Below, in pieces: positions 1 to 64,000 of a stretch of DNA of 64,000 nucleotides. Every line of letters begins with the position of its first letter. The stretch's first letter is position 1. Origin of the DNA: a virus; the IMG/VR virus record IMGVR_UViG_3300045988_169095, one strand, 5' to 3'. The translations under genes and the position numbers were made by a program. A model generated the notes under the pieces. The model was given only the letters and a program-made list of their open reading frames with translations, ran no database searches and was not told where the DNA came from.

Positions 1-406
1 CACTTTCTCCACCAAGGAATACTTCTAATTCTAATGTTTGTGCTATAGAACTAGACACGGGAGAATAGATATTAAAATTACAATAATAGGGAGCATTAAA
101 GCTTCCAGAGCAATAAAGTATTGAACCATCATTAATAATTGACTTCCCATCTTCAGTAGACTCTCAGGAGAATGTTCCTTCATTTCCTCCAGTATAACGT
201 AACTCTAAATAATCAGGATCTCCTACAGGTCAAATTCGAAAATGCATTGGTTCTCCAGGTTGATGACCTGCAGCGCTCGTATTATATCTTACAACATTTT
301 TAAATGGATATGCATCTTCTCAATGACTTCCCTCAGCATTATACAATTGAATTGAATAAGGAGATGTTTCTTTTCCTATATTTTGTGATATAAAAGGTTT
401 TCCCAT
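1..406 (-). CDS. Virion or tail-associated protein, 5' part (3' end runs off the window). Contains at least 3 in-frame TGA codons read as Trp.
   Basis: Minus-strand ATG at 406..404 sits 4 nt downstream of the preceding minus-strand gene's stop. The frame stays open only if TGA is sense (SHWED, RIWPV, FSWES). Confidence 0.45.
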
Positions 407-409
407 ATA

Positions 410-799
410 TTAATATCTTTTAGGTATACCTCCAAGTTTATCCGCTCACCTCTCTGTGTAGAACCAGTAATATGATTTCTTAGAATTTGGAGTATGGATC
501 ATAGCCCAAATAATACTTGGAAGTCCAATAATTAGTAAATAAAGAGGACCTAAATATAAAGATTGTCTTGTATGTCCTCATTCGTGATCTTTAATAAAGT
601 TTCTATTATATTTCCAACTTGATTCTCCCATTAAGATATATAATCCTAATGAAATACCTCCAGGAAAGTTTCCTGCATAAATTGGAATTTCTTTAAATGT
701 CTCTTTACGTTCGACATTGTAACATTTGGTTAAGATAAGGCCTAGGAGACACTGTGGGAACTCCCAGATCCATCTTAATAGTTTAATATATCATTTCAT
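410..799 (-). CDS. Small membrane protein (129 aa) with 3 in-frame TGA codons.
   Basis: ATG at 799..797 and TAA complement at 410-412. Hydrophobic helices. The TGA codons fall in MKW, HEWGH and TERWADK. Confidence 0.5.
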
Positions 800-813
800 A
801 AATTTAAATATTT

Positions 814-996
814 TTATGATCATTTAGTTAATGTAACACGAGGAAGTGGAAGTCACCCTTGAGGACCGTGCAAATCATATGAATCCTGGATTTCTCTTAT
901 AGTCAAATATTTTGTACTTCCTGGCACTGTTTGTGAACTTGCAGATCCTTTAATAAATGTATATAATTCTAATTCATCTACTTTATATTGCATCAT
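814..996 (-). CDS. Small hypothetical protein with 2 in-frame TGA codons. The frame is open up to 1173, so the protein may be longer with a non-ATG start.
   Basis: Stop TAA complement at 814-816. First in-frame ATG at 996..994. Upstream, the frame is open without any ATG. Confidence 0.3.
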
Positions 997-1166
997 ATCT
1001 TCCCAGGGAACATATACTTTAATAAAAGCTCCTGTAGGTGTTATTTCTGCTAGTTTTTCATATAGGTTGTTTCCATGTGAATCTGTAGTTAAAATAATTT
1101 CTACTTTATCTATTTGAGGTGAGTATGTTCCAACTAACTGTATTTGAAATATTACCCCCGTGGTAT

Positions 1167-1355
1167 TTAGTTTTTAGGAAAGTATTTATCTTTAATAAAT
1201 TTAGCATACCATCCAGTAGCTACTCCGCCAATAAATGATATAGCCATTAATAGTGTTTTCCAGAAGCCTAAAGCTTGGAAAATACCAATGCCTCCAATTA
1301 ATACACCAAGTATAATTGCAGCAATGATTAATTTGTGTTTAAGAGAAAGTTTCAT
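1167..1355 (-). CDS. Small membrane protein (62 aa), holin-like size and topology.
   Basis: ORF with two predicted TM helices, sitting inside the lysis and virion block. Confidence 0.45.
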   Translation of the reverse strand: MKLSLKHKLIIAAIILGVLIGGIGIFQALGFWKTLLMAISFIGGVATGWYAKFIKDKYFPKN

Positions 1356-1356
1356 A

Positions 1357-1605
1357 TTATTTATATGTTAAGTTACTATAAGTTGTTCCGTTTTCAGAAA
1401 CAATATAATTTTTCTGAGTTTTATATAACGGTAATATCTCATCCTTACAATAAATAAAAGCATAGGCTTTATCATAAAAAGGATGGTCTTTCATTTTATC
1501 TTCAAATTCTTTCGGAGAACGCTCTTTTGTAACTAAAGTATAAGAGTCTCCTAAACTAAAATTCATTTCTAAACCGTCATTTGTAATTTTTCTTAATGTA
1601 AACAT
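1357..1605 (-). CDS. Hypothetical protein (82 aa).
   Basis: ORF tightly packed with its neighbours on the minus strand. Confidence 0.45.
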   Translation of the reverse strand: MFTLRKITNDGLEMNFSLGDSYTLVTKERSPKEFEDKMKDHPFYDKAYAFIYCKDEILPLYKTQKNYIVSENGTTYSNLTYK

Positions 1606-1667
1606 AAATGTATATATTTATAAATTATTTTAAACTAGATATGTAACATAGAGTTCTTTTTAGGAGC

Positions 1668-3893
1668 TCACGCTACATCATTTAGTAATCTTAGTATAGT
1701 AGAATCATCAAGCCTTTCGAAAAGTTCTTCAGGCCCTTTGTAAAGATTCATGTCTATAGCTTTTTCTATGGGTTCAATTTTCTTAGGAATAGTTGGATTG
1801 TTTATATTACTTTTATAGAACTGATTCTCTGTTCTAATTAAATAATCACCTGTATGGTTCTTATTTCTAAGTTCCTGAACCTCTTCTAAGGTATATTCAT
1901 GATTTGGATCTAAGTTATTATTAAATCTTAATTCCATTAATCTGGAATAAATTTCTGAAGGCTTATCCAAATAATCATCATACATTATTCCTGGTTTTAA
2001 TCCTCATCTATCAATAATTTCTTTAACTTTGGCAATCTGTTCATAAGGTCTAGATGCATGAGTTCATTCATGAACTTCTGTACTCTTACTATCATCAGAA
2101 GTGGTTATAGTTTTCTCTTTATGATTAGTCAGTCCTGTAATTTTGCCTGGGAGTTTTCCTCTTTTAAAAGAGTATTTACTCATAGATGCAGATTGTCTAA
2201 AATAAGGATTTTCTATTAATCCAGGTATTGCCAATCATCCTGAATAAACAGAATTATTTTTAAGTTTATCCTTCCTCTGTGAAAGCCAATTATCAACTCA
2301 TTTTCGAGTATCTGCCCCATCTTGAGCTTTAATAATTCCTCCATTACGTTCTGATACTACCTCATTTCCAAGAACACCTGCTCCAAGTATCGCAGGGACT
2401 CTTCTAAATAGTTTCAAAATGATATCCTTATTCTCTTTCCAGAAGGTTTCTTTAGCTTGTAAAGCATTAGAGCTTGTAGTTGGATAAAACATATTAGCAT
2501 CCCAACCTATATCAAAGATTTTTCTAGCTTCTGCTTCAGTTAATTCTGTAAAAGAAGATCTAATTCCAGCTTCTGCTTTGTAACTCATAATTTTGGAATA
2601 GATATCTTTAGCACTATTTTCCTGAGTCATTGCAGATAAGAATTTCTTTGGAAACAATTCTTTCTCTGTATAAGATAATCCTCTTAATCCAAAATCATCT
2701 TTAGTTCCAACTAATTCTTGAAGAAGCTGCTTTGATGCAGCCTTCTCTCCTGAACGTAAAGGATTTTGTGCTGCAGGATTTATTTCAAGAATTGTTTCTC
2801 CAGTCTTTGCATCTTTAAAGAATGCATAGTCATGTTTTGGATTCCCCAATCTAACTTTAGAAATTTGTTTAGGAACCTCTAATCTTTCAGCTGCGGGAAT
2901 ACTTCCTTTATGAGCATTTCTTAACCATTTTAAAGCACCATGAAAATATTTAGATAAATCATTTCCATAATGTTTATAAATTAAGTTAACCCCTTCTTCT
3001 GCAGCTTTTACTGTATTTTTAGCAACTTCAGATGTACCCACTACTCCAGGCAGAACAGCTAGTCTGGCCGAATCTTCATCTCCTGTTGCTGAGTAATGGA
3101 ATAAACCGTAAGGAGTAAATCCTGCTATAATATCAGCTGGAGCTGAATTTGCTCAACTACTTGAATTGTATGCAGTAGCAATATTGTCTCATTTCCTTCT
3201 AAGTCAAGATCTATTATCTGGCCTAATTTCTCCAGTCCCTCCTGCTTGAAATTTAAGAATTCCTCCATGCTTAGCAGAGGCTATTATTCTTTTTAAAGTA
3301 TCTGCATACCTTGGGTCTGTTGCATAACCTCCTTTGGCCACTCTGTCTGCGAAACCAGCTATGTCTCCAGTAAAAGCCTTATATCTATTGTTATTAAGTA
3401 GAGAAATTTTATATTTTGCATAGTCTTCTAAAGAATCAAAATCTCTAAAACTATCATTAATATAAACATCTTTCCCATTAATAACTTCTCTTGTTCTTTT
3501 TACAGAGCCTTTTCCTTTAATACCTCCAAAATTGAATTTACCAGAAGGCTTAGTTCCTCAGGCAGATTCAAGTCCATCTTGTGCAACTAACGCTTTGGCA
3601 TAGGCTGCATTTAAACCCATTTGAGAAAGGATTCTCTCATAAATAGGTAACATAGTAGCCTTAAATTCATTCTTACTTTTAAATGAAGATGAAGTAGTAT
3701 TTGCACTAATTGTATATGTAGGTTTTGATTCTTTCTCGGCTCTAGGTTTTTCTTCTGAAGTTTCAATACTATCAATTATAGGGGAGGCAACAGTTTGAGG
3801 TCTTGGTTCTTCCCTTTCTTCAGTGTTGAATCTGGGTAAATAACCTTGGAGCTCATCTGGCTCTCTTGAAATTTTCCTATACCATGTTTTCAT
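1668..3893 (-). CDS. Large virion-associated peptidoglycan hydrolase (about 742 aa) with a glucosaminidase (FlgJ/LytD-like) domain. It has at least 11 in-frame TGA=Trp codons.
   Basis: Three track ORFs (3558-3893, 2298-3041, 1668-1985) share one frame. Scanning the gaps codon by codon found only TGA, never TAA or TAG. The motif FNFGGIKG...GGYATDPRYADTLKRII matches a glucosaminidase domain. Confidence 0.6.
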
Positions 3894-3983
3894 AATTACA
3901 TTATTTGATCGCTACAAATATAGTTATAGTTCTATTTAAAACAAAATAAAAGCAGCCTTTTTATGAAGACTGCTTTTAAGAGG

Positions 3984-4526
3984 CTATGCTTTGAAAAAAT
4001 AGATTTTATTTCCCTTAGTATTTCCTATATCAATATGTAATCATGTAATTTCTCCATTATTATCTCATTTTTCTACACGTATAGGATACTTAAGTTTATC
4101 TTGATTATTTTCGAGAATTTCTCTCATCTCTTTAGCAGTTAATTTAGTTGATATTAAATCAAACGCTTGACCTTTATAATGATAGCCTGTAGGAGTACCA
4201 ACTCCACACCCAGGTTCTCTATAACCACTATAATTTCTAGATCCTCCTGCGTATCAATTGTTACATATAAGAGGAACATTTAGAATTTCTCTAACATTCT
4301 CTAAAGCTTCAAGAGCTTTTGGATCTAGAAATTTTATAGCATCATCTCCATATTGATTATATATTTTAGATGATACTAATTCTTTTACTTGAAAGTATTT
4401 ATTTGCTTGCATAATTTTATACAATAAGTTATGGCTACATCATTCTCTAATTAAAGACGGAATTGGTCTTTTGAATACAATATTGTTAGGATATAATTCT
4501 TTTAAATATTGAATTATTTTCTTCAT
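3984..4526 (-). CDS. Peptidase M15 (VanY or L-Ala-D-Glu peptidase-like) endolysin with 4 in-frame TGA=Trp codons.
   Basis: Motifs SGYREPG...H.KGQAFDL and W-LHIDIG, where the Trp is encoded by TGA. 181 codons, stop TAG. Confidence 0.65.
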
Positions 4527-7109: not shown

Positions 7110-7829
7110 TTAGGTAAGGGAATATTCTTGGGTTTCAATGGATCCATCTTTGATTGATTTTAATTTATTAATTTCTTTCATAGCTCATTGAAGTTGTTTT
7201 TTGAGCTGTTCAATGTCTTCAGTATTCTTTTCTACTTTCTCATTTACATAAAGAACAGCTTGACAAACTTTAGCTAAATCTATAGCTCCTACAGTTCTTT
7301 GTAATCCAGTAGTTTCATCTCTTCTATAGGAAGTAAGTTCTGTAAGTATTCCTTCATCTCTCATTTCTTTATTTCTTCGTCTAATTGTTCTTACAGATGT
7401 ATGCATAGAATCTGCAAGCTCTTCTTGAGTTTTCATAGTATATGCAAATCCTGTAGCAGGGTCCTTGTAAGAATTGGCTAAAACTCCCATTACATGTCCT
7501 TTTAAATCGGGAGATCAGTCCTTATCCAAGAATTCAAATGTATATCGTTCAAAATCTTCTTCAAGTTTTGTAAATTTATACACATTTGGCATTCTAGGTT
7601 TTCGAATTACCGTAAATGCACCTTCTCTTTCTAAAGCTAAAATTGCTTTACGAATAGTGTTTAAAGCACACCCAGTTTCTTTTTTGATTGTATCTAAGGA
7701 TGGAAATGCTTCCATCGTGTCTTTATTCATATGACGGCGAATGTGGGCATAAATATATCAGTCTTTAGAAGATAAGTTCCATTTAGATGGGTGTGGAACT
7801 TGCACATGTTGATTTTTTGTATATTCCAT
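7110..7829 (-). CDS. DNA-binding protein with two winged-helix/HTH-like segments, a putative regulator or replication initiator. Contains 3 in-frame TGA=Trp codons.
   Basis: ATG at 7829..7827 preceded by an in-frame TAA. Two track ORFs (7515-7730, 7185-7490) share the frame and are joined by TGA. The 3' end runs through another TGA to the TAA at 7110. Confidence 0.5.
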
Positions 7830-7914
7830 ATATTATATAGTATAAGTTTGCTATCACAAAGGTATATATTTTGTCCATCATTTCCAAATCGATAAGGTCA
7901 AAATTTATACTAGA

Positions 7915-9203: not shown

Positions 9204-9362
9204 ATATGACCAGAGAAGAGCTCAAAGAAAGAGTATCAAAGCTCATTCAAACATTAGAGAACGTTGAGAGATCTCTTCAGTTTACAAATATCCCTGTATA
9301 CGTTCTCACCAACTACATCAAAGAAGAAACAAACATTGACATCACAAAAAACTAAAAAGATC

Positions 9363-9698
9363 ATGGCAAAGAAAGAAATCAAACCGCAGACCATCGAAGA
9401 GGTCCTTGCAGAGCACACTCCGACCTCCGACGCTGTCAAGAGCGCAGTCCAGCGTTACAACGAAGAGAAGAAGAAGAAGCAGGAACAGATCATCATCGAT
9501 ACCCTCGGCGCCGTTGACTGCATCGTCTCGGACCTCGTGGACGACCTTCGCAGGATCCGTGCAGAAGAGAAACGAGCTCAGCAGCGTATCCTCGACGTGA
9601 CGGCGGCCAAGGAGGCCTATCTAGCAGATCCCGATCAGGAGGTTCTGGCCCAGGGGCTTCGCAAGGCAGGCATCAGTCTGTCCCGTTATGCAGAGTAA
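9363..9698 (+). CDS. Hypothetical protein, GC-rich.
   Basis: ATG at 9363 within the 9264-9698 ORF. Distinct GC-rich codon usage. Confidence 0.45.
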   Translation: MAKKEIKPQTIEEVLAEHTPTSDAVKSAVQRYNEEKKKKQEQIIIDTLGAVDCIVSDLVDDLRRIRAEEKRAQQRILDVTAAKEAYLADPDQEVLAQGLRKAGISLSRYAE

Positions 9699-10243
9699 CG
9701 GGAACTCGTCTAAGCGAGTCTAAACAGATCTTTAAGCTTAGAGCGTCTCTGGTCATAAAGACCAGAGGGTAGATAGAAGAAATTTAGAATTATAAAAATT
9801 TTAAATTTCTTATAAATTTATTATTATTATATTAATATTAGCCCACCTAATTATAAATAATCACCTAATTATAAATAATATGGAAGAACTTTGAATTCGG
9901 AAATATAATACTTAAAGGTGGGACGGAGGATATGGTCAGTTCCTTTGAGACAGTGCCATATTCAAGTATGTTATCTAGTCAATAATGTACTTCAGAGAAG
10001 GTTTTACACGCTCTGTTCCATTGTGCTATCAAGCCTTAACCCGACTTAAACTTAGTCTATGGGACTTTGATCGGTCCCATAGGCTCTTATGTGGTGGCGA
10101 TTGCCGCGTTAAGTTAATTTTGTTCATATTGTTAGTATTTTCTTCGAAATTGCCACATCTTGCAAGATCTGAGGGTTTGGTTGCAATCCAAGAAGCAGAA
10201 GAAAGAAAATGGTTGTAAACTAAGTATTTCAAGCAACAACGTT

Positions 10244-13073: not shown

Positions 13074-13146
13074 AGAGCTATAGTATTTATAGGTAAGTAC
13101 ACTACTCTGAGGAGTAGAGATAGAGGTTCAAATCCTCTTAGCTCTC
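13074..13146 (+). tRNA. tRNA-like gene with a non-canonical anticodon arm (6-bp stem CTACTC/GAGTAG with a 4-nt loop, or an 8-nt loop TCTGAGGA). Identity unresolved.
   Basis: Acceptor AGAGCTA/TAGCTCT. D-stem GTAT/GTAC. T-arm AGAGGTTCAAATCCTCT. Confidence 0.4.
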
Positions 13147-13283
13147 CAAGACTTTTAAAATTTGTATAATGGAAAAAGTGACACAAAATGTACCTGATAC
13201 AGGTTATACAGATCCTGATGAATTCGTGAATGACCCTTGTATCGAAGCCATAGAGGATGAAGAACTTCTTAACATAGAATAAT

Positions 13284-15406: not shown

Positions 15407-16142
15407 ATTCTTTCTGAATAATAGAAATATTGCTATATGTATTCTTCTGAATACTGTAGTGATATTTCTGTTGTCCTTTCATCGATTCCAACATGTCCTT
15501 TTGCCACTAGATGTGGCGTTTACCATATTCTTTATAATAGAGATGATTGTCAAGATTAGATGTCTTGGTAAATTATTCTTTAAGGATAAAGAATGTGTTT
15601 TTGATTTATTAATTGTTGTAGTTTCATCAATCCCATTATTTGGGTTATTCAGTTTAGATTGGATTCAAGTAATGCGATTGACTCGAATATTTAAGAGTCT
15701 TCGATTGTTTGAATTGATTCCTAATTACAAAAAATTACTCATCAATTTTAGGTTAGTAATTCGAAGTTGCATTGGAATCTTAGTAGGATTATCTATTTTG
15801 ATTTTTCTATTATCAATTATTCTGTCTTCTTTATATGGAAATATAGTTCCAGAGTATTTTGGAAATCCCCTTGAAAGTATTTATTCAGTTTTCCGATTGT
15901 TTTCTATTGAGGGTTGGTATGATATTCCAAATGCTATTGCTGAGCGTAGTTCCTATGTAATGGGATATTTATCTAAGTTTTTCTTATCAGGTATAGTTCT
16001 TGTTTTTGGTATATTCGGAATGGGATTTGTATCATCTATGTTTATTGATGAGGTAACTTCAGATAATAATGATGAAGTTCTACAACGATTAAGTAAGTTA
16101 GAAGAAATTTTAAAGAAAATACAAGAAAATGGCACAACTTAA
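15357..16142 (+). CDS. Voltage-gated cation-channel-like protein (6 TM, BacNaV/NaChBac-like).
   Basis: S1-S6 segments. S4 with Arg every third position (RLTRIFKSLRLF). Pore helix and filter FSIEGW. C-terminal coiled coil. The start may be GTG at 15398. Confidence 0.5.
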   Translation: MVTKPLPSPSTISGVSKFFLNNRNIAICILLNTVVIFLLSFHRFQHVLLPLDVAFTIFFIIEMIVKIRCLGKLFFKDKECVFDLLIVVVSSIPLFGLFSLDWIQVMRLTRIFKSLRLFELIPNYKKLLINFRLVIRSCIGILVGLSILIFLLSIILSSLYGNIVPEYFGNPLESIYSVFRLFSIEGWYDIPNAIAERSSYVMGYLSKFFLSGIVLVFGIFGMGFVSSMFIDEVTSDNNDEVLQRLSKLEEILKKIQENGTT

Positions 16143-25218: not shown

Positions 25219-25290
25219 CGCGGTAGTAGTTCTTTGTGAAATTCTCTGCGGTATACAGTTAGTGGAAGCATAAAAGAATTTCACTTTAAG

Positions 25291-25361
25291 CACCTTTGGT
25301 GTAATTGGTAACACGATGGTCTCCAAAACCATAGTTTAGAGTTCAAGTCTTTAAGGGTGTG
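25291..25361 (+). tRNA. tRNA-Trp(CCA).
   Basis: Anticodon stem ATGGT/ACCAT with loop CTCCAAA. G73. Acceptor has G1.U72. Confidence 0.55.
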
Positions 25362-39049: not shown

Positions 39050-39050
39050 T

Positions 39051-42175: not shown

Positions 42176-42185
42176 CTTCATAGGC

Positions 42186-42205
42186 GGATTTACTCCGCCT
42201 TTTGA
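42186..42205 (+). terminator. Rho-independent terminator.
   Basis: Stem GGCGGA..TCCGCC followed by TTTT. Confidence 0.5.
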
Positions 42206-42279
42206 GGGCCTTTAGCTCAATTGAATAGAGCATCTGACTACGGATCAGAAGGTTACAGGTTTGAGTCCTGTAGGGCCCA
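42206..42279 (+). tRNA. tRNA-Arg(ACG).
   Basis: Acceptor GGGCCTT/AGGGCCC. Anticodon stem TCTGA/TCAGA with loop CTACGGA. Confidence 0.55.
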
Positions 42280-42475
42280 CATATGAAAACTGTTTTATAT
42301 AGAATACAATCAATTGAAGCTCCAGAAAATGAAGGGTTTCGGTATGGCTCATTAAGAACACTATCTAAGACAAAAGTAGATGAAGAAATGTGCTTAAGGA
42401 ATGAGTTTGGAAGTCATTATCTAATTAATGTTCCAGATTATTGAATTTGTGAGATTTTAAAAGAAATAGAAGAAG

Positions 42476-43850: not shown

Positions 43851-43916
43851 TTTAGATATGAATTTTATAGGTTATGTTATAATATTTAACTAATTTTTAG
43901 AATGAATTCAAAATGA

Positions 43917-44543
43917 TTGTTAGAAAAAGAAAAATTAGAACAATTAATTTTAATTGATAAACTAAGTTACGAAGAGATAGGGAAAAAATATAATTGCTCT
44001 GGTAGTAATATTAAAAAAGTTGCTTCAAAAATAGGAATTACGTTACCAAAGAGACGTAAATTAAATCCTAATGAAACATTTAATAAAGGAGTGCATAAAG
44101 TAATTGTTTCTAATATTAATATCCCTAAACCTATACAAAAAGTTGGCACTAAAACTTATTGTCTTAACTGTGGACATGAATTAGATGGATATGCCAAAAA
44201 ATATTGCTCTAGTAAATGTCAAATAGAGTATAAACATAAATTAGCATATAAAAAATTTTTAGAAGGAGATCTTTCTATTATGAGAGCTAATTATAACCCT
44301 AGAGTATTTAAGAAAGATATTATAAAAGAACAAAACAATAAGTGTGCTATCTGTGGTTTAGAACCTGAGTGAAATAATAAGGAGCTTGTTTTTATTTTAG
44401 ATCATATTGACGGACATGCTGCAAACAATAAACGAGATAATTTAAGGTGTATATGTCCTAATTGTGATTCACAATTAGATACTTATAAATCTAAGAATAA
44501 AAATGGAGATAGGCATTATTACAGATACCATAAAAATAAATAG
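43917..44543 (+). CDS. HNH endonuclease with N-terminal HTH and zinc ribbon. 1 in-frame TGA=Trp codon. Start uncertain (TTG at 43917).
   Basis: Track ORF 43917-44372 continues in frame through the TGA into the HNH core LDHIDGH..NNKRDNLRCICPNC. Confidence 0.45.
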
Positions 44544-48347: not shown

Positions 48348-48437
48348 GCGCCTGACCCGAGGCGGGGGGGAGGTCTTCAAAACCTCTATGCTGTTGGTCC
48401 ATCTTCAGCCCTGTGGGATCGTTACCTACCAGGCGTG
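48348..48437 (+). tRNA. Candidate opal suppressor tRNA-Sup(TCA). It reads UGA, probably as Trp given G73. It has a long variable arm and an atypical T-loop ATCGTTA.
   Basis: Perfect 5-6 bp anticodon stem GAGGT/ACCTC with the 7-nt loop CTTCAAA. Acceptor GCGCCTG/CAGGCGT with G1.U72. Discriminator G. Confidence 0.55.
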
Positions 48438-48453
48438 CAAATAAGAAGTAAAT

Positions 48454-49038
48454 ATGACTATTAAGGAACAATGTATACATTTACGGGAAGAAGGAAAAAC
48501 TTATAACGAAATTTGTACTATTCTACACTGTTCTAAAAGTACAGTTGCATATCATTTGAATACGACTACTAAGATAGCAGCTACAAAATGACAAAGCGAA
48601 AACAAATGTAAGGATTGAAAGTACAAATTTATGCATAGTTGTTCTAACTTTCTAAATCGAAGAGATAGATCTAAACATATCAGAACAATGTGTTCAGATT
48701 GAAATAAAAAGTTTAGAACTCACGTATCAGAGTTCAATAATAGATATAAAAACAAAGGAAATTTGGCTAATAAATGTTATTACAAGGATGTGTTAACATA
48801 TCTTAATGGAACTAATGTTAAATGTTATTTAACAGGTGCACCTATTGATTTGACAAAAGATGATTATTGTTTTGATCATATAGTTCCTGTATCAAAAGGA
48901 GGAACTAATGAATTATCAAATCTAGGAGTAACTATTCCCTCAGTTAATTATTCTAAACATGATTTAACTATAGAGGAATATTTGTCTTTATGTAAACAGG
49001 TTTTAGAACACCATGGGTATACTGTAAGTAAAACTTAA
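48454..49038 (+). CDS. HNH endonuclease with an N-terminal HTH and 3 in-frame TGA=Trp codons. Paralog of the gene at 29687-30256.
   Basis: The N-terminal segment with TGAs joins in frame to the track ORF at 48763-49038, which carries the HNH core. Confidence 0.5.
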
Positions 49039-49546: not shown

Positions 49547-49638
49547 TATGTGGTGGTTGATTGGATTACTATTAGCTATTGCTATCATACTTAGTCCTAT
49601 GTTATGGGCTATTTATAAACATATAACGTATGAGAAGT

Positions 49639-50241
49639 TGAATAACTAAAATTTTAAGTGGAGTTGCAATTATTTTAGGAATAACTGTTTACTTCATGAA
49701 TGTAAGGATAAATGATTTAAATAAATCATTAGATATATCCGTTAATAATGAAAAAGCATACTCAGCTGAAAACTCAGCCTTGAAAGAGAGTAATATAGTT
49801 TTTAGATTTGAGTTAGCTCAAATGACCCACATGAATGATTCAATTCTTGTGAAAATGCGAGAAGTAGCCCAAGAACTCAAAATAAAGGATAAGAAATTAG
49901 AATCTTTACAATATCAGTTAGAACATATTTCTAAGTCAGATACTATTTTTATTAGAGATACTATATTTAAAGATCCTGGTTTTAAACTTGATACGTGTAT
50001 TCAAGATAAATGGGCTAGAACTTGTCTGCATCTTGAATATCCAAATGAAGTAGGAGTGTCAAGTGAGTTTAACAATGAAAAATATATTATTACTTCCTGG
50101 AAAAAAGAACCAATTAAGCAAAGGAAGTGGTTCCTTCCAAGATGGTTTACGAAAAAACAAAAAATTATAACTGTTGACGTAGTAGATAAGAATCCTTATG
50201 TAACTACAGAAAGACAGAGATTTGTACAAATTGTAGATTAA
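49639..50241 (+). CDS. Spanin-like protein (TM helix plus coiled coil) with TGA=Trp at codon 4.
   Basis: An in-frame N-terminal extension of the track ORF at 49696-50241 adds the TM helix ILSGVAIILGITVYF. Lies next to the SLT gene. Confidence 0.4.
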
Positions 50242-52435: not shown

Positions 52436-53812
52436 ATGACTGCATTAGATTTTTTTTATGATGAGTTTGTTGCATTTTGCAATAAGTATGATCTAGTGGA
52501 ACAATTTAATAAAGGGTTGCAGATAAAAGGTTTTCCTTACGAGTTAAGCTGTAAACCCTTTATTTTATCTAGGTTATCTCCAGAAATATTTAATTTCTCT
52601 TTACATTGGGCAGAGACTCCTACCCCAAAATCACATTCATGGAGAGAAATTCATGATTTTTGGGTAGAAAAAAGTGTAGAGATAGAAAATAGCTTCAAGA
52701 AGAAATCAAAAGTATTTGAATCATTTCCAGTATACTACTTTAAGTATAAAGGATATGATTATTTAGACTATGTTCCCGATCATATTAGGCAGTTATACTA
52801 TGCAGATCAATTAATTCCTGTAAGAGTTATAGATGTAGAACAAAAAGACGTAAAAAATGGATGCCCAGAAGATGTACATATTATTTCAAATATGTCCATG
52901 TGGGTATTAAAAATGGTAACTAAGTATAAGGGAGTTGTTGAATATAAGGAGTATGACTTAGGAAAGAACATTATTAGAATGTCTAATAATTTTGCATATA
53001 TTATGAAAGCATTCCCAGCTGGATTATCTGCCATTCTAGAACTAAATCCTTCTAAAAAGGTCAATTATCTAGATATTGACTATAATACAGGCAAAGTTTC
53101 TTATCTTCCTATAGAGAAAACTCTTAAAAAGGATTTTGAGTCTGTACGTGCATATGCAGATAGTAATAGGAAAACAACTACTATAGGACGATTACTCAAT
53201 AAGTTCAATTGGGCCCCTTATCTGGATAGATGTGATATCGAAAGGATATCCAATTTTGTTTCTGGATATGGAGAAACTCTTAGTGTAGAAATTTGGGAAC
53301 CTGAAAAAATACGTATAGCATATTTAGAAGATAATTATGCAAAAGAACTAAGATGTATAAAATCTACATTGCATAATTCTTGTATGCGACATGCTGAGTG
53401 TCAAGATTTTTTTGAGTTTTATGAAAAAGCTGATGCAAAGATTGCTGTAGCACTTGATGAAAAAGGTAAAGTTTGTGCCAGAGCAATACTTTGGCAAATC
53501 AATGATTCTTTATATTTTCTGGATAGGATTTACTCAATTAGTCCTTTTTACTATGTAAAGTTTGCAAAAGCTGTTGCAAGTAAGGTTCCTATAGACTTTT
53601 ATAAAGTAGATAGAACTATATACAGTATAAAAACTTTCACTGAAGCAGAAATGCCAGTTTATAGATTATTTAGACCGAAGTTAATAAATTATGAAGGATT
53701 GGTTCCCTATGTAGATACTTTCTATATATTTGATTCTACTTGTGGAGAACTATTGACTGATACAAAAATTTTTAACCTTCAAACTACTGAAGGAAATTTA
53801 ATACATATATAA
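52436..53812 (+). CDS. Hypothetical protein (458 aa).
   Basis: Long uninterrupted ORF. Confidence 0.5.
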   Translation: MTALDFFYDEFVAFCNKYDLVEQFNKGLQIKGFPYELSCKPFILSRLSPEIFNFSLHWAETPTPKSHSWREIHDFWVEKSVEIENSFKKKSKVFESFPVYYFKYKGYDYLDYVPDHIRQLYYADQLIPVRVIDVEQKDVKNGCPEDVHIISNMSMWVLKMVTKYKGVVEYKEYDLGKNIIRMSNNFAYIMKAFPAGLSAILELNPSKKVNYLDIDYNTGKVSYLPIEKTLKKDFESVRAYADSNRKTTTIGRLLNKFNWAPYLDRCDIERISNFVSGYGETLSVEIWEPEKIRIAYLEDNYAKELRCIKSTLHNSCMRHAECQDFFEFYEKADAKIAVALDEKGKVCARAILWQINDSLYFLDRIYSISPFYYVKFAKAVASKVPIDFYKVDRTIYSIKTFTEAEMPVYRLFRPKLINYEGLVPYVDTFYIFDSTCGELLTDTKIFNLQTTEGNLIHI

Positions 53813-54329: not shown

Positions 54330-54743
54330 ATGATACAGAAAGCTAGGGAATTTACTGTTCCTATTCTTAATGTCAAAGTGTCAATCTTAATTGGAAGTCC
54401 ACTATCCGTAGAAAGTTACCTTCAGGATGTTCATAACAAAGTATTCGGACATAGTGCACCAAATGTAGTTGCAGAAACCTTTTATTCTACTGAATCAGAT
54501 GCTGATGAGTTTTTGTATATTGCATTATACGATGATACAGATATAAAAGATTCTGCATATAACGTTATACATGAATGTCTTCATGCTGCTCATAAAATCT
54601 GTACTTTCAGAGGAGTTGAGTTAGATGAAGAGTTTCTATGTTATTTGCAGGGATTCTTAATTAACAAAGTATTTGAATGTTTGAATGCTGAACTGATGGT
54701 AGTTACAAACCATCAATTGACTGCGGAGGATACTCTGCAATAA
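54330..54743 (+). CDS. HExxH zinc-metallopeptidase-like protein.
   Basis: IHECLHAAH. Confidence 0.4.
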   Translation: MIQKAREFTVPILNVKVSILIGSPLSVESYLQDVHNKVFGHSAPNVVAETFYSTESDADEFLYIALYDDTDIKDSAYNVIHECLHAAHKICTFRGVELDEEFLCYLQGFLINKVFECLNAELMVVTNHQLTAEDTLQ

Positions 54744-55120
54744 TAACTCAAAATGGTGAAGTTATAAAAAAACTTTACAGAGGTTATAGAAACACTACTA
54801 ACAACCGTATGGAACTTCTAGGGGTCTTAGAATGTCTTAGATATTTTACAAACCCTGAACAAATAACCATATATTCGGATTCTCAATATGTAGTATCGAG
54901 TATTAACAACAAGCATCTTACCAAGTGGGTTGAAGACAATGATCAATCCAAAAAGAATCTTGATTTGTGATATCCGATTTATGAATTATTGAAGTTTCAT
55001 ACGGTTACTTTTGTGTGAGTAAAAGGCCACAATAATAACAAATTTAATGAGTTAGCTGATTTATTTGCAACTCATGCAAGTGATTGTTTAGATCTACCAG
55101 AAGATAATGGTTCATTTTAA
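54677..55120 (+). CDS. rnhA: Ribonuclease HI with 3 in-frame TGA=Trp codons.
   Basis: TDGSY..CGGYSAII, YSDSQYV, DLW-Y and VW-VKGH. The last two Trp are TGA-encoded and align to the conserved Trp of RNase HI. No standard-code ORF in the track. Confidence 0.55.
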
Positions 55121-56195: not shown

Positions 56196-56346
56196 GTTAC
56201 CCGAAGACATTAATGATCTATATTTCTGTGGTAAGAAATTGCCCGCTACTATAGTAATGTAGTAGATGTATTGAGAAAAAACGGTAGAAAAATTTTGACA
56301 TTATTAATTAAATTATTACTTTTGTATACACAGAAATATAAAATTT

Positions 56347-57171
56347 ATGGGGAAACAAAAGTATAATTTAATTGACGGATTTGAAGAGTGTGCAGCAGAA
56401 ATGTATAAATCTGGAAAAACTCTTCGAGAAATAGCAAATGTTATTGGTACCTATCCAGGAAAAGTAGGACAAATTCTAAAAGAATTAGGAGTAAAGAAAG
56501 GGAGACAATACAAATACATTAATGAGCATTATTTTGACATAATTGATTCTGAGGATAAAGCTTATATCTTAGGATTTTTAATTGCTGATGGATGTATTAG
56601 ATTAGAGGAAAGAAAGAATGTAATTAGTTACAGAATTGCATTTTCTAATAATATTGACGATTCTGAAACAATTGAATTAATTCATTCTAAAATCTGCCCT
56701 AACCAAATGTTAAGAGTGTATCAGAATCCTTTAGGGCATAGAAAACCTCAATATGTTCTTCAATGGACTTCTGAGTATATGGCTAAGATATTAGAAGATA
56801 AATATAACATAACTAACAGAAAAACTTATGATGTACATTTTAGATTCCCATTTGAAAATGTCCCTTCTCAATTCCATAGAGATGTAATTAGAGGATTTCT
56901 AGATGGAGATGGATGTGTACAGAAACATTGTATTAGTTTTGTATTTAATTCTATTAAGTTTCTTACTCAGGTTATTGAGGTATTTAAAGATCTTTTTCAA
57001 AGAAATCCTTTGATGCCTTCAATGTTATATAACATTGAAGTTATAGATGGAAAAACTACTAAATACTGAAGATTACGTATTGCTACTGGACATGGAAGAA
57101 GAGCGCTAATTAAAGATTATCTATATAATGGCGCAACTTACTTTTTAACTAGAAAATTTGCTAAGTTTTAA
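56347..57171 (+). CDS. LAGLIDADG homing endonuclease with an N-terminal HTH. The C-terminal extension passes through one TGA.
   Basis: Two LAGLIDADG motifs, YILGFLIADGCI and IRGFLDGDGCV. Confidence 0.5.
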
Positions 57172-57352: not shown

Positions 57353-58048
57353 GTGGATATTCATGGTAATTTAGATTATTTAAAGTATTTTATAAATACA
57401 GGAGTTGGATTCCCACAAAAGATATTTAACTCCTGTATTGTTTTATGTGGAGATGTAGGATTAGGATTTTCTCCTGATCTTGAAAGTATGAAGATCTCTT
57501 TCTTAAATAAGCTCTGCGAAAAAACTAATAATTATATTATTGCCATAAGAGGGAATCATGATGATCCTCAACAGTTTAAAAACCTTTATAACAAGAGATT
57601 CAAAGCGGTTGAAGATTATTCTGTAATTCAATATAAAGATAAAAATATCTTGTGTATTGGAGGTGGAACTTCTATAGATAGAATCTATAGAAAAAATAAC
57701 AAATGGGGATATTGGGAAGATGAAAAGATTGTTGAGTTGGATAATTTTGATTCAATTCCATATTGTCAAATTATCGCATCCCATTGTGCTCCTACCTGTG
57801 CATACCCTTATGGAATAGGAAAGTTAGTAATGGAATTCTGTGATGGAGATGATTCATTACTGGAAGAATTACTTTGGGAGAGAAATTATCTTCAAACTTG
57901 CTACGAAGAAATGTCTAAAAAAGGACCAGTAGAAGATTGGTATTATGGGCATTACCATAGTACTATGGATACTACTGTAGATAATACGAGGTTTCATTTA
58001 CTTGGTATTAATTACCTTTCTAGATATTGTTATAATGATTACAATTAA
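57353..58048 (+). CDS. Calcineurin-like metallophosphoesterase.
   Basis: DIHGN, GDVG, GNHD and GHYH motifs. GTG start assumed. Confidence 0.5.
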   Translation: MDIHGNLDYLKYFINTGVGFPQKIFNSCIVLCGDVGLGFSPDLESMKISFLNKLCEKTNNYIIAIRGNHDDPQQFKNLYNKRFKAVEDYSVIQYKDKNILCIGGGTSIDRIYRKNNKWGYWEDEKIVELDNFDSIPYCQIIASHCAPTCAYPYGIGKLVMEFCDGDDSLLEELLWERNYLQTCYEEMSKKGPVEDWYYGHYHSTMDTTVDNTRFHLLGINYLSRYCYNDYN

Positions 58049-58352
58049 ATGTTGTTTAGTTGCAGTTCAGACTGGACAATATTCTAAATTGGTGTTTGAG
58101 GACCTTAATAGGGATCCTTGCGATGATTTAAAATATGTCACTGTTGTAATGCTTCCAAATTGAGACTATAAAGATACTCTCAAAATTGGAGATACTGGAT
58201 ATCTGCAATTTGAAAGTGTAAAAGCTGGAGAAACTCAGTGATATAATAGAGAAATACAAGATTTTGCAGTTTATAAATTTAATGCTAATTATTTTATAAA
58301 CTTCATTAAACACAAAGAGATAAATAATATGAAAGAATTTAAGTTTGATTAA
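58035..58352 (+). CDS. Hypothetical protein (about 105 aa) visible only with TGA=Trp (2 TGA codons).
   Basis: Continuous frame from ATG 58035 to TAA 58350-52, confirmed by coordinate arithmetic. Confidence 0.35.
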
Positions 58353-58354: not shown

Positions 58355-59185
58355 ATGGATACAGAATTTGGAGCTAAGTTAAAGGAAGCTATAACGGCTA
58401 AAGACAATGATATTAATAGCTTGGTATGAAAAGACAAAACTGGTGTAAACATTCGTTTAATGGATATTTCCCAGAATGAACTAAAGCGATATCATCGTCA
58501 TTGCGAACAAATGCTAACTAACAGGGACATTTACAAACCTGGTAAATTAGTAATTCGTGAAAACATCCAAAAATGTTGAGATTCTTGTAATGCTGAATTG
58601 TTTGCAAGATATTTAATGCATGATTGTGAGACAGATATTAAAACCAATAAAGATCTACTTGACTTTATCAATGTCCAAAGAAAAGCAAATAATGTAGATG
58701 TGGAAGACAGTATTTCAGTTTTATTTACTGGACTTCCTCCTATCTATGAGAAAGTTACTGTAGGGAAGTTAATGGATGTATGTTTTGATAAGCTTGATGT
58801 ACTTAACAAAAAGATGATTACAGACAAGTTTATTATTGCGCAGGGAATCTGACTCACAGACGAAGAAAAACAAGAGCTCACAGAATTAGAAACAGGGGGT
58901 AAAATTAGAAATCGAATGGAAGTTGTCAAGGAAAGACTTTGTCTTAATCCTGATATTAGACTGCGTGTAAGTCCTACAGGACTTTCATTTGCTGAGTTTA
59001 GAGCTTTGATTCAACTTTCTGATCTCCCTAAAATATCTTCCTTGTCTACAATTGCTCTTAAAACTCTTAGAGACAAAGTTTTACTGCTTTTGGACAATGA
59101 TCTTGATTATCATATCAATAAATGGATGAAAATTAAGAAGGATATTGAACGAGTAGCAGAATATAAAAACTGGAATTTAGATTAG
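58355..59185 (+). CDS. Hypothetical protein (about 276 aa) with 3 in-frame TGA codons. Merges track ORFs 58598-58852 and 58916-59185.
   Basis: The two track ORFs are in one frame, and the same frame holds ATG 58355. Confidence 0.4.
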
Positions 59186-60148: not shown

Positions 60149-61369
60149 ATGGACAAAACTCAACGTCAACGATTAGGCGTTCAAAAATGAATTAATAATA
60201 AAGGAAATGGGATTTGGGTTTGAAGTACTGGTGTTGGTAAATCATTTGGAGCTTTAATGGCTTGTGTGAAATTACTAAAAATTAGACCAGATGCTAAAAT
60301 TCTAATTTCTGTACCTACAACAATTCTCAAGGAGCAATGACTAAGAGACGTAGCTAAAACTAAATTCTTTGGAAATGTTACTGTTGAGGTTATTAATTCT
60401 ATTTTAAAAAAATCTTGAGAAGTTGATTTTCTAATAATTGATGAGCTTCATACTGCGGTATCGGAGCAGTCAATAAAAATATTTGATCAAGTTAAGTATG
60501 ATTTCTTTCTGGGGCTTACAGCTACTTTAGAAAGACTTGATGGAAGAGAGGAATTACTATCTTTATATACTAGAGTAATTGATGTCATTACAACTGAAGA
60601 AGCAATAAAAAATGGATGATTATCGCCATTTAGGTATTACAAAGTTCTTGTGGAGGTTGATGACATGGATACTTATTATGTAATGAACCAAAAGTTTAAT
60701 TCAGTTTTTGCATTCTTTAATTTTGATTTCAGTTCTGCAATGAAATGTGCAACTGATTGAAAGTTCCGTAATAATTACGCTTATAAGATGGGATATGATA
60801 GAAATCAGGTTTTAAATGCTGCTATGGCGTGGATGCAATTAATGCAGAAGCGCAAAAAATTTGTTATGTCCCACCCTAAAAAGTTTGAAATAGCGAAAAA
60901 AATTATAGAAGCAAGAAAAGATAAAAAAATTATTACTTTTTCAGCCACTATTAAAGATGCGGAATCTTTAAAAGTTGGATATACTCTTCATAGCAAAAAG
61001 AAAAAACAAGAAAACTCAGAAACTATTGCATTGTTTAAGTCTCAATCTTCAGGGGTTCTTAATACATCTAAAGCAGCTAATGCAGGATTGGATTGCCCTG
61101 ATATAAATTGTGAGATTAGAATTAGTGGAACTAGTTCTGGAATTGATGCAAGGCAGATTTTGGGAAGGGGATTGCGTTATGTTAATAATAAGATAACTGA
61201 AGTTTTTACTTTGGTTGTTAAAGGCACTAACGAAGAATCCTGGTTTAATAAGGCCCATCAAGGCATTTCATATATTACTATCACTGAAGATCAACTTGAC
61301 TTAGTTTTAAAAGGAGAAGAAGTAATCACAAGAAAACGAGATGATGTAATTACTAACTATAGATTTTAA
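60149..61369 (+). CDS. SF2 DExH-box helicase with 6 in-frame TGA=Trp codons.
   Basis: Motif I TGVGKS, motif II IIDELH, motif III LTAT, motif VI QILGRGLR. Continuous frame from ATG 60149 into track ORF 60788-61369. Confidence 0.55.
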
Positions 61370-61434
61370 ACAGTACTAAGTATCGTAATAACTGTAGGTA
61401 CTTAGATTTGAATTTAACTTCCAAAACTATATAA

Positions 61435-62034
61435 ATGGAGTTAAATACAATACTTAACATAATGGCAGAATATCATATTAGTGCAGACGAACTGTTACTA
61501 ATATGATTAACTCTCTATGCTCGGGATGAAGAAGGCCATTCTGAGCTTTTCTTAAAGTGGTGGACAGATTGTGAGGGAAAACAGAAACTGAAAACCATGT
61601 TTGAGAACCTAAAAGAAAAATCCATAATCAAGAAGAATTATAATCCAGAATCTTATGTTCCTAATGATATTGAATTTAATAAAAATTTTCTAAAGAAGTA
61701 TTATAAACAATCAGGAGTTCTTGGAAAAGAGCTATTTGATAACTATGAACCATTTATCCAAATTAATGGAAAGATGGCCAGTCTTAGAAATATTGCTAAG
61801 AAATTTTATACTTTAGAGGAATTTTACTTTTATTATTCTTCTCAAATAGGACATAATCCAGAAAAGCATAAAGAGGTGATGGAAATTTTACGATGGGCTC
61901 GTGAAAACAAGCTTTGTAAAGTTTCTATTCTTGAGTTCGTTGCTTCTCATAAATGGAATGAATTTGCACAGATGAAGGCTGAAGGATTTAGTCCTGATGT
62001 TGGTACTTCTTTTGATGTTTATCAGGATTTTTAA
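61435..62034 (+). CDS. Hypothetical protein (about 199 aa, 1 TGA), upstream of the DnaB-like gene. Possibly a helicase loader.
   Basis: ATG 61435 is in frame with track ORF 61597-62034. Confidence 0.35.
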
Positions 62035-63128
62035 TGGAGGATCTAAATTTACTTTGGCATTTAATTGAGCAAGGCAGAAAAGGGGAAAATAAAGGTTTGT
62101 CTGTAGGATTACCTAAATTAGACAAGATTATAGGTGGAATACAACCCTCGAGATACTATTGTATATCTGGAGCATCTTCTGCAGGTAAAACTGCTTTAGT
62201 TCTGTATTTCATATATCGGCTTTTTAAGGATTATCCTAAAGAACCTATATATCTTGTTTATTTTAGTTTGGAGATTGGTTCTGAAGTGCTACTAGCGAAG
62301 CTTATGGCTTTGTATTGTGCAGAAGAATTTGGAGTATATCTTACTATAAATGATATCCTTTCCTTTGATTCTATTCTCAGTGATTCTGATTATCAGTATC
62401 TAAAGAAGGCAAGAGACTGGATTGCAACTCTTGGTTCCAGGTTAATTATTCTTGATAAGGGTCTTAATGCTCGCATTCTATATAAAGAGATTTGTGAGCT
62501 TATGAAGAAATTAGGTTCTATAGAAAATGTAGGAAATAAAGAAGTTTATGTTCCAAAACATCCTAGGCAAAGAGTAATTGGAGTTATTGATCACATGTCA
62601 TTAATTAGACCAGAAGAAGGAAGAACCTTAAAAGCTGAAATTGATTTAACTTCGTCTTTTATGGTTACACTAAAACGTAAGTTTTATCTTTCTTGAATGG
62701 CTTTAATGCAGCAGAATAGAGAATCTTCTTCTATGGATAGAAGAAAAGCAGAACTTAATGAACCAGGTTTAAATGACGTAAAGGATTCAGGAGGACCTGT
62801 TCAAGATAGTGATGTGGTTCTTCAACTATATTATCCTGCAAGAGACAAAATTCCAACATACCGAGAGTATAAAATTCTCGGACCTCATAGTTTAGCTGGA
62901 AGATTTAGAAGTATTATTGTATCTAAGAATAGATATGGTATTGCAGACAGAGTAATAGGATGTGGATTTTATGGAGAAGTTGGATGGTTTAAAGAACTTC
63001 CACTAGGAAGAGATATTACTGACTTCACAAAATATTTGGACATTAACGCTAACATTAGAGGTATAGATACAACTGTAGTAGGTACAGTAGAAATAGATAA
63101 GAACAACATCGTATATAGTTTATCATAA
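62034..63128 (+). CDS. DnaB-like replicative helicase (364 aa), with 1 internal TGA=Trp.
   Basis: Walker A SGASSAGKT and DnaB motif QQNRESS..R. The two track ORFs are in one frame, joined by TGA at 62694. Confidence 0.55.
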
Positions 63129-63129
63129 T

Positions 63130-63866
63130 ATGTCTATTGTATTACCAACAGCGAAGGTTCCCGCTGAAACTCAGGATCCTAAAAACTTAATTCTATTTGG
63201 ACTTCCTAAAGTAGGAAAAACTACCATTCTTAGTACACTGGAAAATAATCTTATTCTTGACTTTGAAAATGGTTCTACATATGTAGATGCTCTTAAAGTT
63301 AAGGTTTCTAGTTTAAAAGAGCTAAAAGAGGTTATTAAAGCTATCAAGGATGCAGGAAAGCCATATACTTATATTACAATTGATACAATCACAGCCTTAG
63401 AAGAAATGACCAAAGATATGGCTCTTAAAATGTGGCAAAATTCTCCTCAGTTTACTACAAAGTATGAAATTAAGGACGTTACACAAATTCCTAATGGAGC
63501 TGGATATAGTTTTTGAAGGCAGGCACTGGAAACAGTTATTGACTTAATTGCCTCTGCTGCTCCTAACTTAATTATTTGTGGTCACGTTAAAGATACAGCA
63601 TTATCTGAAGGTCTTGATGGATCTGTAAAAGATCTTGATCTTGTAGGTAAAACTAAAAGGGTATTATCTGCTAAATCTGATGCAATTGGATTTGTTCATC
63701 GTGATGAAGAATCTAATTTGTGTATCAATTTTGGTATGAATGGAGAAGTACTTTGTGGTGCTCGTCCTGCTCATTTGGCAAATAAAGATATCATTGTAGC
63801 TGAGTATCAAGAAGATGGTACATTTGTATCTCATTGGGAGAGAATCTATCCCTCTCTGTCTAAATA
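63130..63866 (+). CDS. Sak4-like / AAA_24 RecA-like ATPase, with 1 internal TGA=Trp.
   Basis: P-loop GLPKVGKTT. The frame continues through the TGA at 63514 to the TAA at 63864. Confidence 0.45.
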
Positions 63867-63872
63867 AATCAT

Positions 63873-64000
63873 ATGTTTAAAGTAACATTTGAATTTGATG
63901 AAACAACTAAGTCTATTAGTAACTTAAAGTGTGAGGAACTTAAGTCTTCAAAACCAAAGGTTAACTCTAATGGGCAACCAATCATTGAAGTAGGAGAAAA
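63873..64000 (+). CDS. Hypothetical protein, 5' partial (runs off the window).
   Basis: ATG 63873, open to the window end. Confidence 0.3.
   Translation, partial: MFKVTFEFDETTKSISNLKCEELKSSKPKVNSNGQPIIEVGE

Follow-up and report, generated by a model that had tools for sequence, protein, structure and literature searches.

The window analysed here is the whole 64 kb stretch (64,000 nucleotides) of IMG/VR record IMGVR_UViG_3300045988_169095, in which a subset of genes contains TGA as a tryptophan codon while others use TGG only, and in which a non-canonical tRNA gene with a UCA anticodon, tRNA(UCA), is a candidate opal suppressor. The window has a G+C content of 35% and ~28 tRNA genes (ARAGORN, Rfam), and is part of the ~176 kb genome of an uncultivated tailed phage of gut or rumen metagenome origin. 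IMG/VR holds dozens of contigs of this phage lineage, including near-identical ones of 140-179 kb (e.g. IMGVR_UViG_3300045988_162375, 176,037 bp). Relatives were retrieved in three tiers (~98% nucleotide identity, ~86-90% nucleotide identity, and a clade at ~66-68% nucleotide and ~60% amino acid identity), together with a further relative, L145, at 46-89% amino acid identity. No close annotated relative was found among GenBank phages by megablast or by tblastn with DnaB: megablast with 30-50 kb of the window gave no match, and DnaB gave distant matches only, at 33% identity to unannotated human faecal phage contigs. The nearest annotated phages in the DnaB tblastn search are crAss-like, Bacteroides and Cellulophaga phages (~26% identity for the crAss-like and Bacteroides phages). 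No capsid or tail genes were identified within the 64-kb window.

The genes that are open only when TGA is a sense codon include a lysis block on the minus strand, a regulator, a set of nucleases lying among the tRNA genes, and a replication block. They are listed here with their in-frame TGA and TGG counts.

2-406 (−): partial open reading frame (ORF) running off the window start, function unassigned; 3 TGA, 0 TGG; TGA29 is TGG in relatives
410-823 (−): membrane-protein-like ORF; 3 TGA, 5 TGG; TGA82 interchanges with TGG
1635-3893 (−): 752-amino acid protein with a glucosaminidase domain (peptidoglycan hydrolase); 9 TGA, 5 TGG; PF01832 covers residues 88-207 and crosses TGA112; in some relatives TGG stands at four of the TGA sites and TGA at three of the TGG sites
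3984-4526 (−): endolysin, Peptidase_M15-like (Pfam PF08291; PHROG 894 endolysin, 3e-21); 4 TGA, 0 TGG; TGA154 and TGA162 are TGG in relatives
7110-7829 (−): HTH_36 (winged-helix) regulator; 3 TGA, 1 TGG; PF13730 covers residues 18-70 and crosses TGA24; TGA24 and TGA105 interchange with TGG
28651-29385 (+): HNH endonuclease (Pfam); 3 TGA, 1 TGG
29687-30256 (+): HTH-HNH endonuclease (Pfam); 2 TGA, 0 TGG
36314-36802 (+): Endonuclease VII-type nuclease (PF02945, 3e-25); 2 TGA, 0 TGG
43902-44543 (+): HNH/EndoVII-like nuclease (Pfam); 2 TGA, 0 TGG
48454-49038 (+): HTH-HNH endonuclease (Pfam), directly 3' of tRNA(UCA); 3 TGA, 0 TGG
49630-50241 (+): putative spanin-like protein with an N-terminal transmembrane segment and a coiled coil; TGA at codon 4, which is TGG in L145; the transmembrane segment is included only if this TGA is read through
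54677-55120 (+): RNase HI, between and overlapping TGA-free genes; 3 TGA, 1 TGG
56347-57171 (+): LAGLIDADG homing endonuclease; 1 TGA, at codon 241
58002-58352 and 58355-59185 (+): two ORFs, function unassigned; 2 and 3 TGA, with TGA/TGG swaps at three sites
60149-61369 (+): SF2 (DEAD/ResIII/Helicase_C) helicase; 6 TGA, 4 TGG
61435-62034 (+): ORF, function unassigned; 1 TGA, 4 TGG; all four TGG codons are TGA in some relatives
62034-63128 (+): DnaB-like helicase; 1 TGA, 3 TGG, with 2-5 TGA in relatives; DnaB_C covers residues 21-307 and crosses TGA221, also aligned to PDB
63130-63867 (+): Sak4-like AAA_24 ATPase; 1 TGA, 2 TGG; TGA129 interchanges with TGG

Making TGA a sense codon raises the coding density of codon-usage-scored gene calls from 0.773 under code 11 to 0.847, the comparison that the earlier note on this DNA had proposed, and increases mean gene length from 142 to 175 amino acids; with TAG as a sense codon the density is 0.776. 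That note had counted at least 25 genes open only when TGA is sense, which is about right: ~24 recoded genes among ~105 are well supported and 4-5 more are weak (ORFs 6688, 10371, 20850, 46317 and 814-996). TAA and TAG are absent from the merged frames by construction. In-frame TGA occurs at 0.0040 per codon compared with 0.0326 off-frame, and this rarity indicates that random read-through does not explain the merged frames. Pfam, PHROG and PDB alignments, with TGA written as X, continue across the TGA positions in the DnaB_C, AAA_24/Sak4-like, SF2 helicase, glucosaminidase, M15, HTH_36 and RNase H domains and in five HNH/EndoVII nucleases. Some of the TGAs that may have been counted earlier fall at gene ends or upstream of true starts, that of the SF2 helicase being 60149; for a ferritin-like gene at 55527 the start is probably 55620, and both TGAs precede it. 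The observation of a recoding mosaic is confirmed, and callers set to the standard code break up or miss roughly a quarter of the phage's genes, as had been predicted; recoding must be recognised if this lineage is to be annotated.

The meaning of TGA was read from a codon comparison in which every window gene was aligned to 83 related loci and the codons of the subjects were recorded. Sixty-nine window TGA sites could be aligned and 32 of them vary; TGG takes its place at 21 of these and TAT at three, with no Gly, Ser or Cys codons. TGA is present in some relative at 27 of the 197 window TGG sites, and the two codons behave as a synonymous pair, comparable to TAT and TAC in the same table. 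The nucleotide after TGA shows no clear bias. The earlier note had set as a test whether TGA aligns with Trp in homologues, and it does so, aligning with W in RNase HI and interchanging with TGG. The proposed TGA in the W-LH motif of the M15 endolysin (codon 162) is indeed TGG in relatives, and of the two conserved RNase HI tryptophans on which TGA was said to fall, that of DLW stands (TGA98 is aligned with W in each of the four solved RNase HI sequences displayed) and that of WVKGH stands in part, TGA114 being aligned with W in two of the four and with K and F in the others. Because TGA interchanges with TGG, with Gly and Ser codons absent, these alignments indicate that TGA is a tryptophan codon, synonymous with TGG across the phage lineage.

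Recoding of TAG, hinted at by a tRNA-like gene with a CUA anticodon (27322-27402), was considered and rejected. It brings no gain in coding density, and TAA or TAG in place of sense codons is only sporadic in relatives, at scattered mixed-codon sites; by the same codon comparison, TAG is not recoded.

Hardly any weight can be given to the proposal that TGA stands for Gly (code 25), selenocysteine (Sec), Ser or Cys, or that the interrupted genes are pseudogenes or assembly errors. ARAGORN does label tRNA(UCA) as 'SeC', and the long variable arm and G73 of that tRNA resemble identity elements of seryl-tRNA synthetase substrates (Mukai et al., PMC5389517), but at variable sites TGA swaps with TGG and Tyr codons and never with those for Gly, Ser or Cys (no GGN codon is found among the replacements at TGA sites in the 83 related loci), it aligns to W in RNase HI, and the tRNA has no match to the tRNA-Sec model. 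The same gene layout and the same in-frame TGAs recur across several samples, in over 15 independent contigs, which speaks against pseudogenes and rules out a chimeric assembly.

TGA is distributed very unevenly among the genes of the window, and one long segment is poor in it:

13284-54743 (+): TGA-poor block of 41 kb with metabolic and transport genes and ~25 tRNAs; its TGA-free status is kept in relatives

Genes of this block encode an ion channel, an ABC transporter, SPFH, NAMPT, NadE, phosphoribosyl pyrophosphate (PRPP) synthetase, adenylosuccinate synthetase and an IMPDH-like protein; ParB-like and phosphoesterase genes are likewise TGA-poor. Heterogeneity of TGA/(TGA+TGG) among genes gives G=196, whereas permutations average 102 and do not exceed 149 (p<5e-5). 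The lysis block at 1-4526 has 21 TGA and 12 TGG codons and the replication block at 54.7-64 kb has 23 and 28. Within the TGA-poor block the five HNH/EndoVII nucleases have 12 TGA and 1 TGG, and the other 61 genes at 13.3-54.7 kb have 12 TGA, most of them at ORF edges, and 140 TGG. A Fisher test of the recoded sets against the rest gives 7e-18, so that the recoded genes are a set statistically distinct from the TGA-free ones, as had been claimed. The homing-type nucleases among the tRNAs (28651-49038), with TGA at 12 of 13 Trp codons, have the strongest TGA bias of any class in the window. NAMPT (0 TGA, 6 TGG) and the ABC transporter genes (0 TGA and 2-5 TGG each) use TGG only, in agreement with the first description.

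Several of the TGAs in the TGA-poor block lie at ORF edges, including four within ATGA stop/start overlaps at gene starts 26176, 35359, 51561 and 52436. At these the TGA ends or nearly ends the upstream TGA-free gene while overlapping the next ATG, with a TAA or TAG 1-4 codons further on; the upstream product is near-identical whether TGA is a stop or Trp, and both codes fit. The overlaps fit TGA acting as a real stop in TGA-free genes. Three other TGAs are taken as sense codons on the evidence that 52254 is TGG in relatives, that in-frame indels lie beyond 42283, and that the gene with 59211 ends in a TAATG overlap. At most ~5 genes possibly end in TGA, none demonstrably.

The partition is retained in relatives. 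A 458-amino acid ORF at 52436-53812 has 0 TGA and 7 TGG, and its relatives at 46-60% amino acid identity have 0 and 10; IMPDH (0/6), Metallophos (0/3) and the ORF at 55107 are also TGA-free in relatives. RNase H, although it overlaps two TGA-free genes, still has 3-4 TGA in relatives, and the DnaB-like and SF2 helicases have still more TGA in the clade at 60% amino acid identity. As judged from these codon patterns, the comparison shows a gene-by-gene partition that is maintained under selection.

It is improbable, in our view, that the mosaic is simply a matter of history, in which old core genes gained TGA after the suppressor was acquired, and younger imports or highly expressed genes have not drifted, with no role in timing. 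Such a history would account for a TGA-poor block made up largely of auxiliary metabolic genes, for the occasional TGA in that block in relatives, and for mobile HNH genes in which nearly every Trp codon is TGA (12/1), a composition that circulation among recoded phages would be expected to produce. It does not readily account for the same genes being TGA-free over three tiers of relatedness (~90%, 75-80% and 60%) while the adjoining and overlapping RNase H stays TGA-rich, nor for TGA-free genes that include ORFans with 7-10 Trp codons. This persistence, Trp-rich ORFans included, points to purifying selection against TGA in these genes.

Uniform use of code 4 by the host, with the TGA-free genes arising by chance or by recent import from standard-code bacteria, is very unlikely. 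TGA is unambiguously Trp, many host-like metabolic genes are found in the TGA-free set (NadE has 41-47% identity with bacterial genes), and the near absence of genes that could end in TGA would also suit a code-4 host. However, the heterogeneity among genes is far above chance, TGA-free genes including phage-specific ORFans retain their TGG codons at 46-60% amino acid identity, TGG and TGA interchange commonly in recoded genes, AT pressure would drift TGG to TGA, and four ATGA stop/start overlaps lie in the TGA-free block. The phage also encodes peptidoglycan hydrolases, the glucosaminidase and M15 endolysin, which imply a walled host and exclude Mollicutes; code 25 is excluded since TGA is Trp and not Gly. 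The earlier preference for a two-code genome over a uniform code-4 host is thus supported, both by the conservation of the partition at 46-60% amino acid identity and by the hydrolases and the roughly three quarters of genes that keep TGG and avoid TGA.

The host probably has a cell wall and uses the standard code, and it may belong to the Bacteroidota. The motif TTTG-N17-23-TAnnTTTG, which we take to be a Bacteroidota-type promoter, has 11 matches compared with 3.8 ± 1.8 expected, several of them directly upstream of genes. The nearest cellular homologues of NadE are mixed, coming from Firmicutes and other taxa at 41-47% identity, including a 'Bacilli bacterium' metagenome-assembled genome, and are not diagnostic. 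The promoter-motif sites include 3915-3945 (−), 7857-7888 (−), 36263-36293 (+) and 56294-56324 (+), plus seven more. A pistol self-cleaving ribozyme is present at 9704-9774 (+) (Rfam RF02679, 72.1 bits, E 3e-11), directly 3' of ORF 9264-9698, with a tRNA-Glu ~470 nt further downstream; pistol ribozymes are mostly associated with Firmicutes.

Two tRNA genes bear on how TGA is decoded:

48348-48438 (+): candidate opal-suppressor tRNA(UCA), 91 nt, non-canonical (ARAGORN, labelled tRNA-Sec)
25290-25362 (+): canonical phage tRNA-Trp(CCA), with anticodon arm GGTCTCCAAAACC

The tRNA(UCA) gene is inside the TGA-poor block, with 15 nt between it and the TGA-rich HNH gene downstream. Its features are G1.U72, G73, a shortened D arm (~11 nt), the anticodon loop CUUCAAA, the T loop AUCGUUA, and a variable arm formed by a GCUG/CAGC hairpin with a 12-nt loop, UUGGUCCAUCUU, that contains GUCCAU. 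Its anticodon arm GGTCTTCAAAACC differs from GGTCTCCAAAACC of tRNA-Trp(CCA) solely by the change of C34 to U, and G1.U72 and G73 are common to both tRNAs. The 13-mer GGTCTTCAAAACC occurs once in the window, where none is expected by chance. The 91 nt are 100% identical in nine related contigs, whose flanks are 85-99% identical. The tRNA-Sec label was rejected: the acceptor/T branch is 7/5 and not 8/5, the D stem has 3-4 bp and not 6, and there is no Rfam tRNA-Sec match at E<=10. An exact 18-mer match to the anticodon arm at another locus (L044) was also discarded, as a chance match inside a coding region. The folding z-score of 48348-48438 is not significant (-0.62), a measure that is uninformative for tRNAs. 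No tryptophanyl-tRNA synthetase (TrpRS) or RF1 gene was found within the 64-kb window.

A scan of IMG/VR with the pattern GGTCTTCAAAACC-N(3-33)-GTGGG recovered canonical tRNA-Trp-like UCA tRNAs, selC-like tRNAs, and a third group with five arms. This group, located on phage contigs that are large and AT-rich, has at least 22 distinct members, 93-97 nt long, which combine a tRNA-Trp-like acceptor (mostly AGGGGC...) and an invariant G73 with the UCA arm and with D and T arms of normal form; ARAGORN labels them tRNA-SeC because a long variable arm is combined with a UCA anticodon. Between the anticodon and T arms is an extra hairpin with a 5-bp stem and a 7-nt loop, N-U-C-C-A-A-A, which is the anticodon loop of tRNA-Trp. 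Twelve of the 22 aligned members have GGUCUCCAAAAC as the extra loop with its closing pairs, which departs from the UCA arm at position 34 only, and ten of these 12 contain the full GGUCUCCAAAACC. All five helices are supported in an alignment of the 22 members (L115, L121, L113, L109, L119, L130, L134, L135, L142, L145, L138, L152, L156, L158, L163, L117, L124, L099, L101, L102, L112 and L151), with 97.5% of cells paired and 20 of 26 pairs changing on both sides; in the extra arm four of five pairs covary and the UCCA of the loop is invariant. The CCA arm is followed by a 3' linker and T arm, and the UCA arm is preceded by a D arm and one nucleotide, and since both contexts are native-like the structure resembles the outcome of a tandem anticodon-arm duplication.

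The tRNA at 48348-48438 has the anticodon arm GGUCUUCAAAACC, G73 and 7/5 branch required of members of this family, and departs from its canonical D arm and T loop. A covariance model of the five-arm family scores it at 40.9 bits (E ~2e-8), placing its GUCCA on the family motif, with a truncated D arm, an enlarged extra loop and a deviating sequence. L145 carries a canonical five-arm member at the syntenic site, between a tRNA-Leu and the spanin-like gene. From these resemblances, 48348-48438 is likely a degenerate, derived member of the five-arm family and the likely suppressor.

The CCA anticodon, as the main identity element, and G73 are important for TrpRS identity in E. coli. The extra arm may, tentatively, be read as preserving recognition by TrpRS. 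The 5' copy of the arm would read UGA (CUUCAAA) and the 3' copy would keep the Trp loop N-UCCAAA, the two arms possibly swapping over which of them occupies the anticodon position, and TrpRS of a standard-code host would thereby charge a UGA-decoding tRNA with Trp. We offer as a tentative proposal, plausible though short of probable, that the opal suppressor of many large AT-rich phages, among them a close relative of this one, is a tRNA-Trp with a tandem-duplicated anticodon arm whose extra CCA loop is presented to host TrpRS, with 48348-48438 as a derived member. Coverage of ORFs under code 4 compared with code 11 at the five-arm tRNA loci is noisy, some gaining 0.16-0.58 and others nothing, probably on account of TGA-free neighborhoods around the tRNAs. 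No description of an anticodon-like variable arm on suppressor tRNAs was found in the limited literature searched, which does not in itself prove novelty.

Other unusual tRNAs are encoded in the window. A tRNA at 27501-27588 (+) has a UUU (Lys) anticodon, a long variable arm (GCC-GAAA-GGC hairpin) and A73, and is class II-like, which is unusual for tRNA-Lys; a compensatory C-G to T-A change in its anticodon stem in relatives indicates structural constraint. The tRNA-like gene with the CUA (amber) anticodon at 27322-27402 (+), called 'Pyl' by ARAGORN, scores 39.4 bits with the Rfam tRNA model and is conserved in relatives, with either two mismatches in the anticodon stem or else a 13-nt loop. 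A tRNA at 13074-13147 (+) (Rfam tRNA, 49.3 bits), also conserved in relatives, has a 6-nt anticodon loop, CUGAGG, and therefore receives no ARAGORN anticodon assignment.

Taken together, we think it probable that this phage infects a standard-code host and reads TGA as Trp in only part of its genome, as a translational gate. The TGA-free genes and the tRNA cluster would be translated or expressed first, by host machinery operating with the standard code, and the cluster includes tRNA(UCA), which would be charged with Trp. As it accumulated, tRNA(UCA) would compete with release factor 2 (RF2), and the TGA-containing genes would become translatable, such that recoding would gate potentially harmful or late functions. 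The suppressor itself appears to be a derived tRNA-Trp, whose relatives have a duplicated anticodon arm that would keep a CCA loop beside the UCA decoding arm. Like the earlier note, we infer that expression of the recoded genes would be confined to times of active suppression.

Several points weigh against this interpretation. The temporal switch is something we infer from sequence patterns. Replication genes are recoded too, and the gate is thus not simply one of late structural and lysis genes. Avoidance of TGA is strong and not absolute, with a few TGG-to-TGA changes in relatives within the TGA-poor block. Host-type promoter motifs are present upstream of some recoded genes, a hint that gating would be translational rather than transcriptional. 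The Rfam tRNA and tRNA-Sec models miss 48348-48438, both at the gathering threshold and at E<=10; with its truncated D arm and atypical T loop this tRNA may be a relic, and a functional suppressor may instead be encoded in the ~110 kb beyond the window.

Two groups of genes within the TGA-poor block are of separate interest. A contiguous cluster for NAD and nucleotide metabolism at 36795-43537 (+), all of it TGA-free, encodes NAMPT, NAD synthase, a PHROG-2971 protein, an adenylosuccinate synthetase-like protein, PRPP synthetase and an IMPDH/GMP-reductase-like protein. The gene at 16129-17655 (+) encodes an unusual fusion of an NMT1/ABC substrate-binding domain to a C-terminal OmpA-like peptidoglycan-binding domain, and with the permease and ATPase genes 3' of it looks like a phage-encoded ABC importer.

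Recoding of this kind is already published as a general model, and it is the tRNA architecture that is the new part deserving attention. If true, the extra arm would be a new natural way to separate tRNA identity from decoding, of relevance to the evolution of the genetic code and to engineered orthogonal UGA suppressors, and could explain part of the ~65% of TGA-recoded phages that have no detected suppressor tRNA; tRNAs of the 48348-48438 type would show why suppressors go undetected in most of these. The long variable arm and UCA anticodon are shared with class II/tRNA-Sec-like tRNAs and allo-tRNAs (Mukai et al. 2017, PMC5389517), but the acceptor/T branch here is 7/5, not 8/5 or 8/4, and the body is tRNA-Trp-like.

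Among recoded phages, in-frame TGA in conserved genes is also found in phages of Mollicutes (uniform code 4) and of Gracilibacteria/Absconditabacteria (code 25), where nearly all genes contain TGA (~90% for code 25; bioRxiv 10.1101/2021.08.26.457843). In contrast, three quarters of the genes here avoid TGA, the codon does not stand for Gly, and the phage encodes peptidoglycan hydrolases. The crAss-like and Lak phages likewise recode a stop codon, TAG to Gln, with a bias toward late genes, phage suppressor tRNAs and a standard-code host (Yutin et al. 2021, PMC7886860; Peters et al. 2022, PMC9523058), whereas the codon here is TGA, despite the CUA tRNA-like gene at 27322-27402.

The closest parallel is with the TGA- and TAG-recoded gut phages of standard-code hosts described by Borges et al. 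(2021 preprint, 2022 paper; bioRxiv 10.1101/2021.08.26.457843), in which 26-71% of genes are recoded per clade, recoding extends to lysis and structural genes and, variably, to replication genes, and suppressor tRNAs, detected in only 35% of code-4 genomes, are in standard-code regions; a code switch in mid-infection was proposed. The two-code reading of the earlier note is this same model, and the evidence supports the window as a further example and as a further case for a mid-infection switch acting as a translational gate. Compared by description, the Agate, Jade and Sapphire clades of that study share with this phage TGA as Trp, partial recoding (~24% here), recoded lysis genes, variable recoding of replication genes, a suppressor tRNA (here the candidate) in a standard-code region, genomes of 150-200 kb and an origin in gut metagenomes. 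It differs from those clades in that its homing endonucleases and other nucleases are the most strongly recoded (12/1), and so stand out as the most strongly gated, in its non-canonical candidate suppressor, and in the interleaving of the two gene classes inside operons, where gating would act gene by gene.

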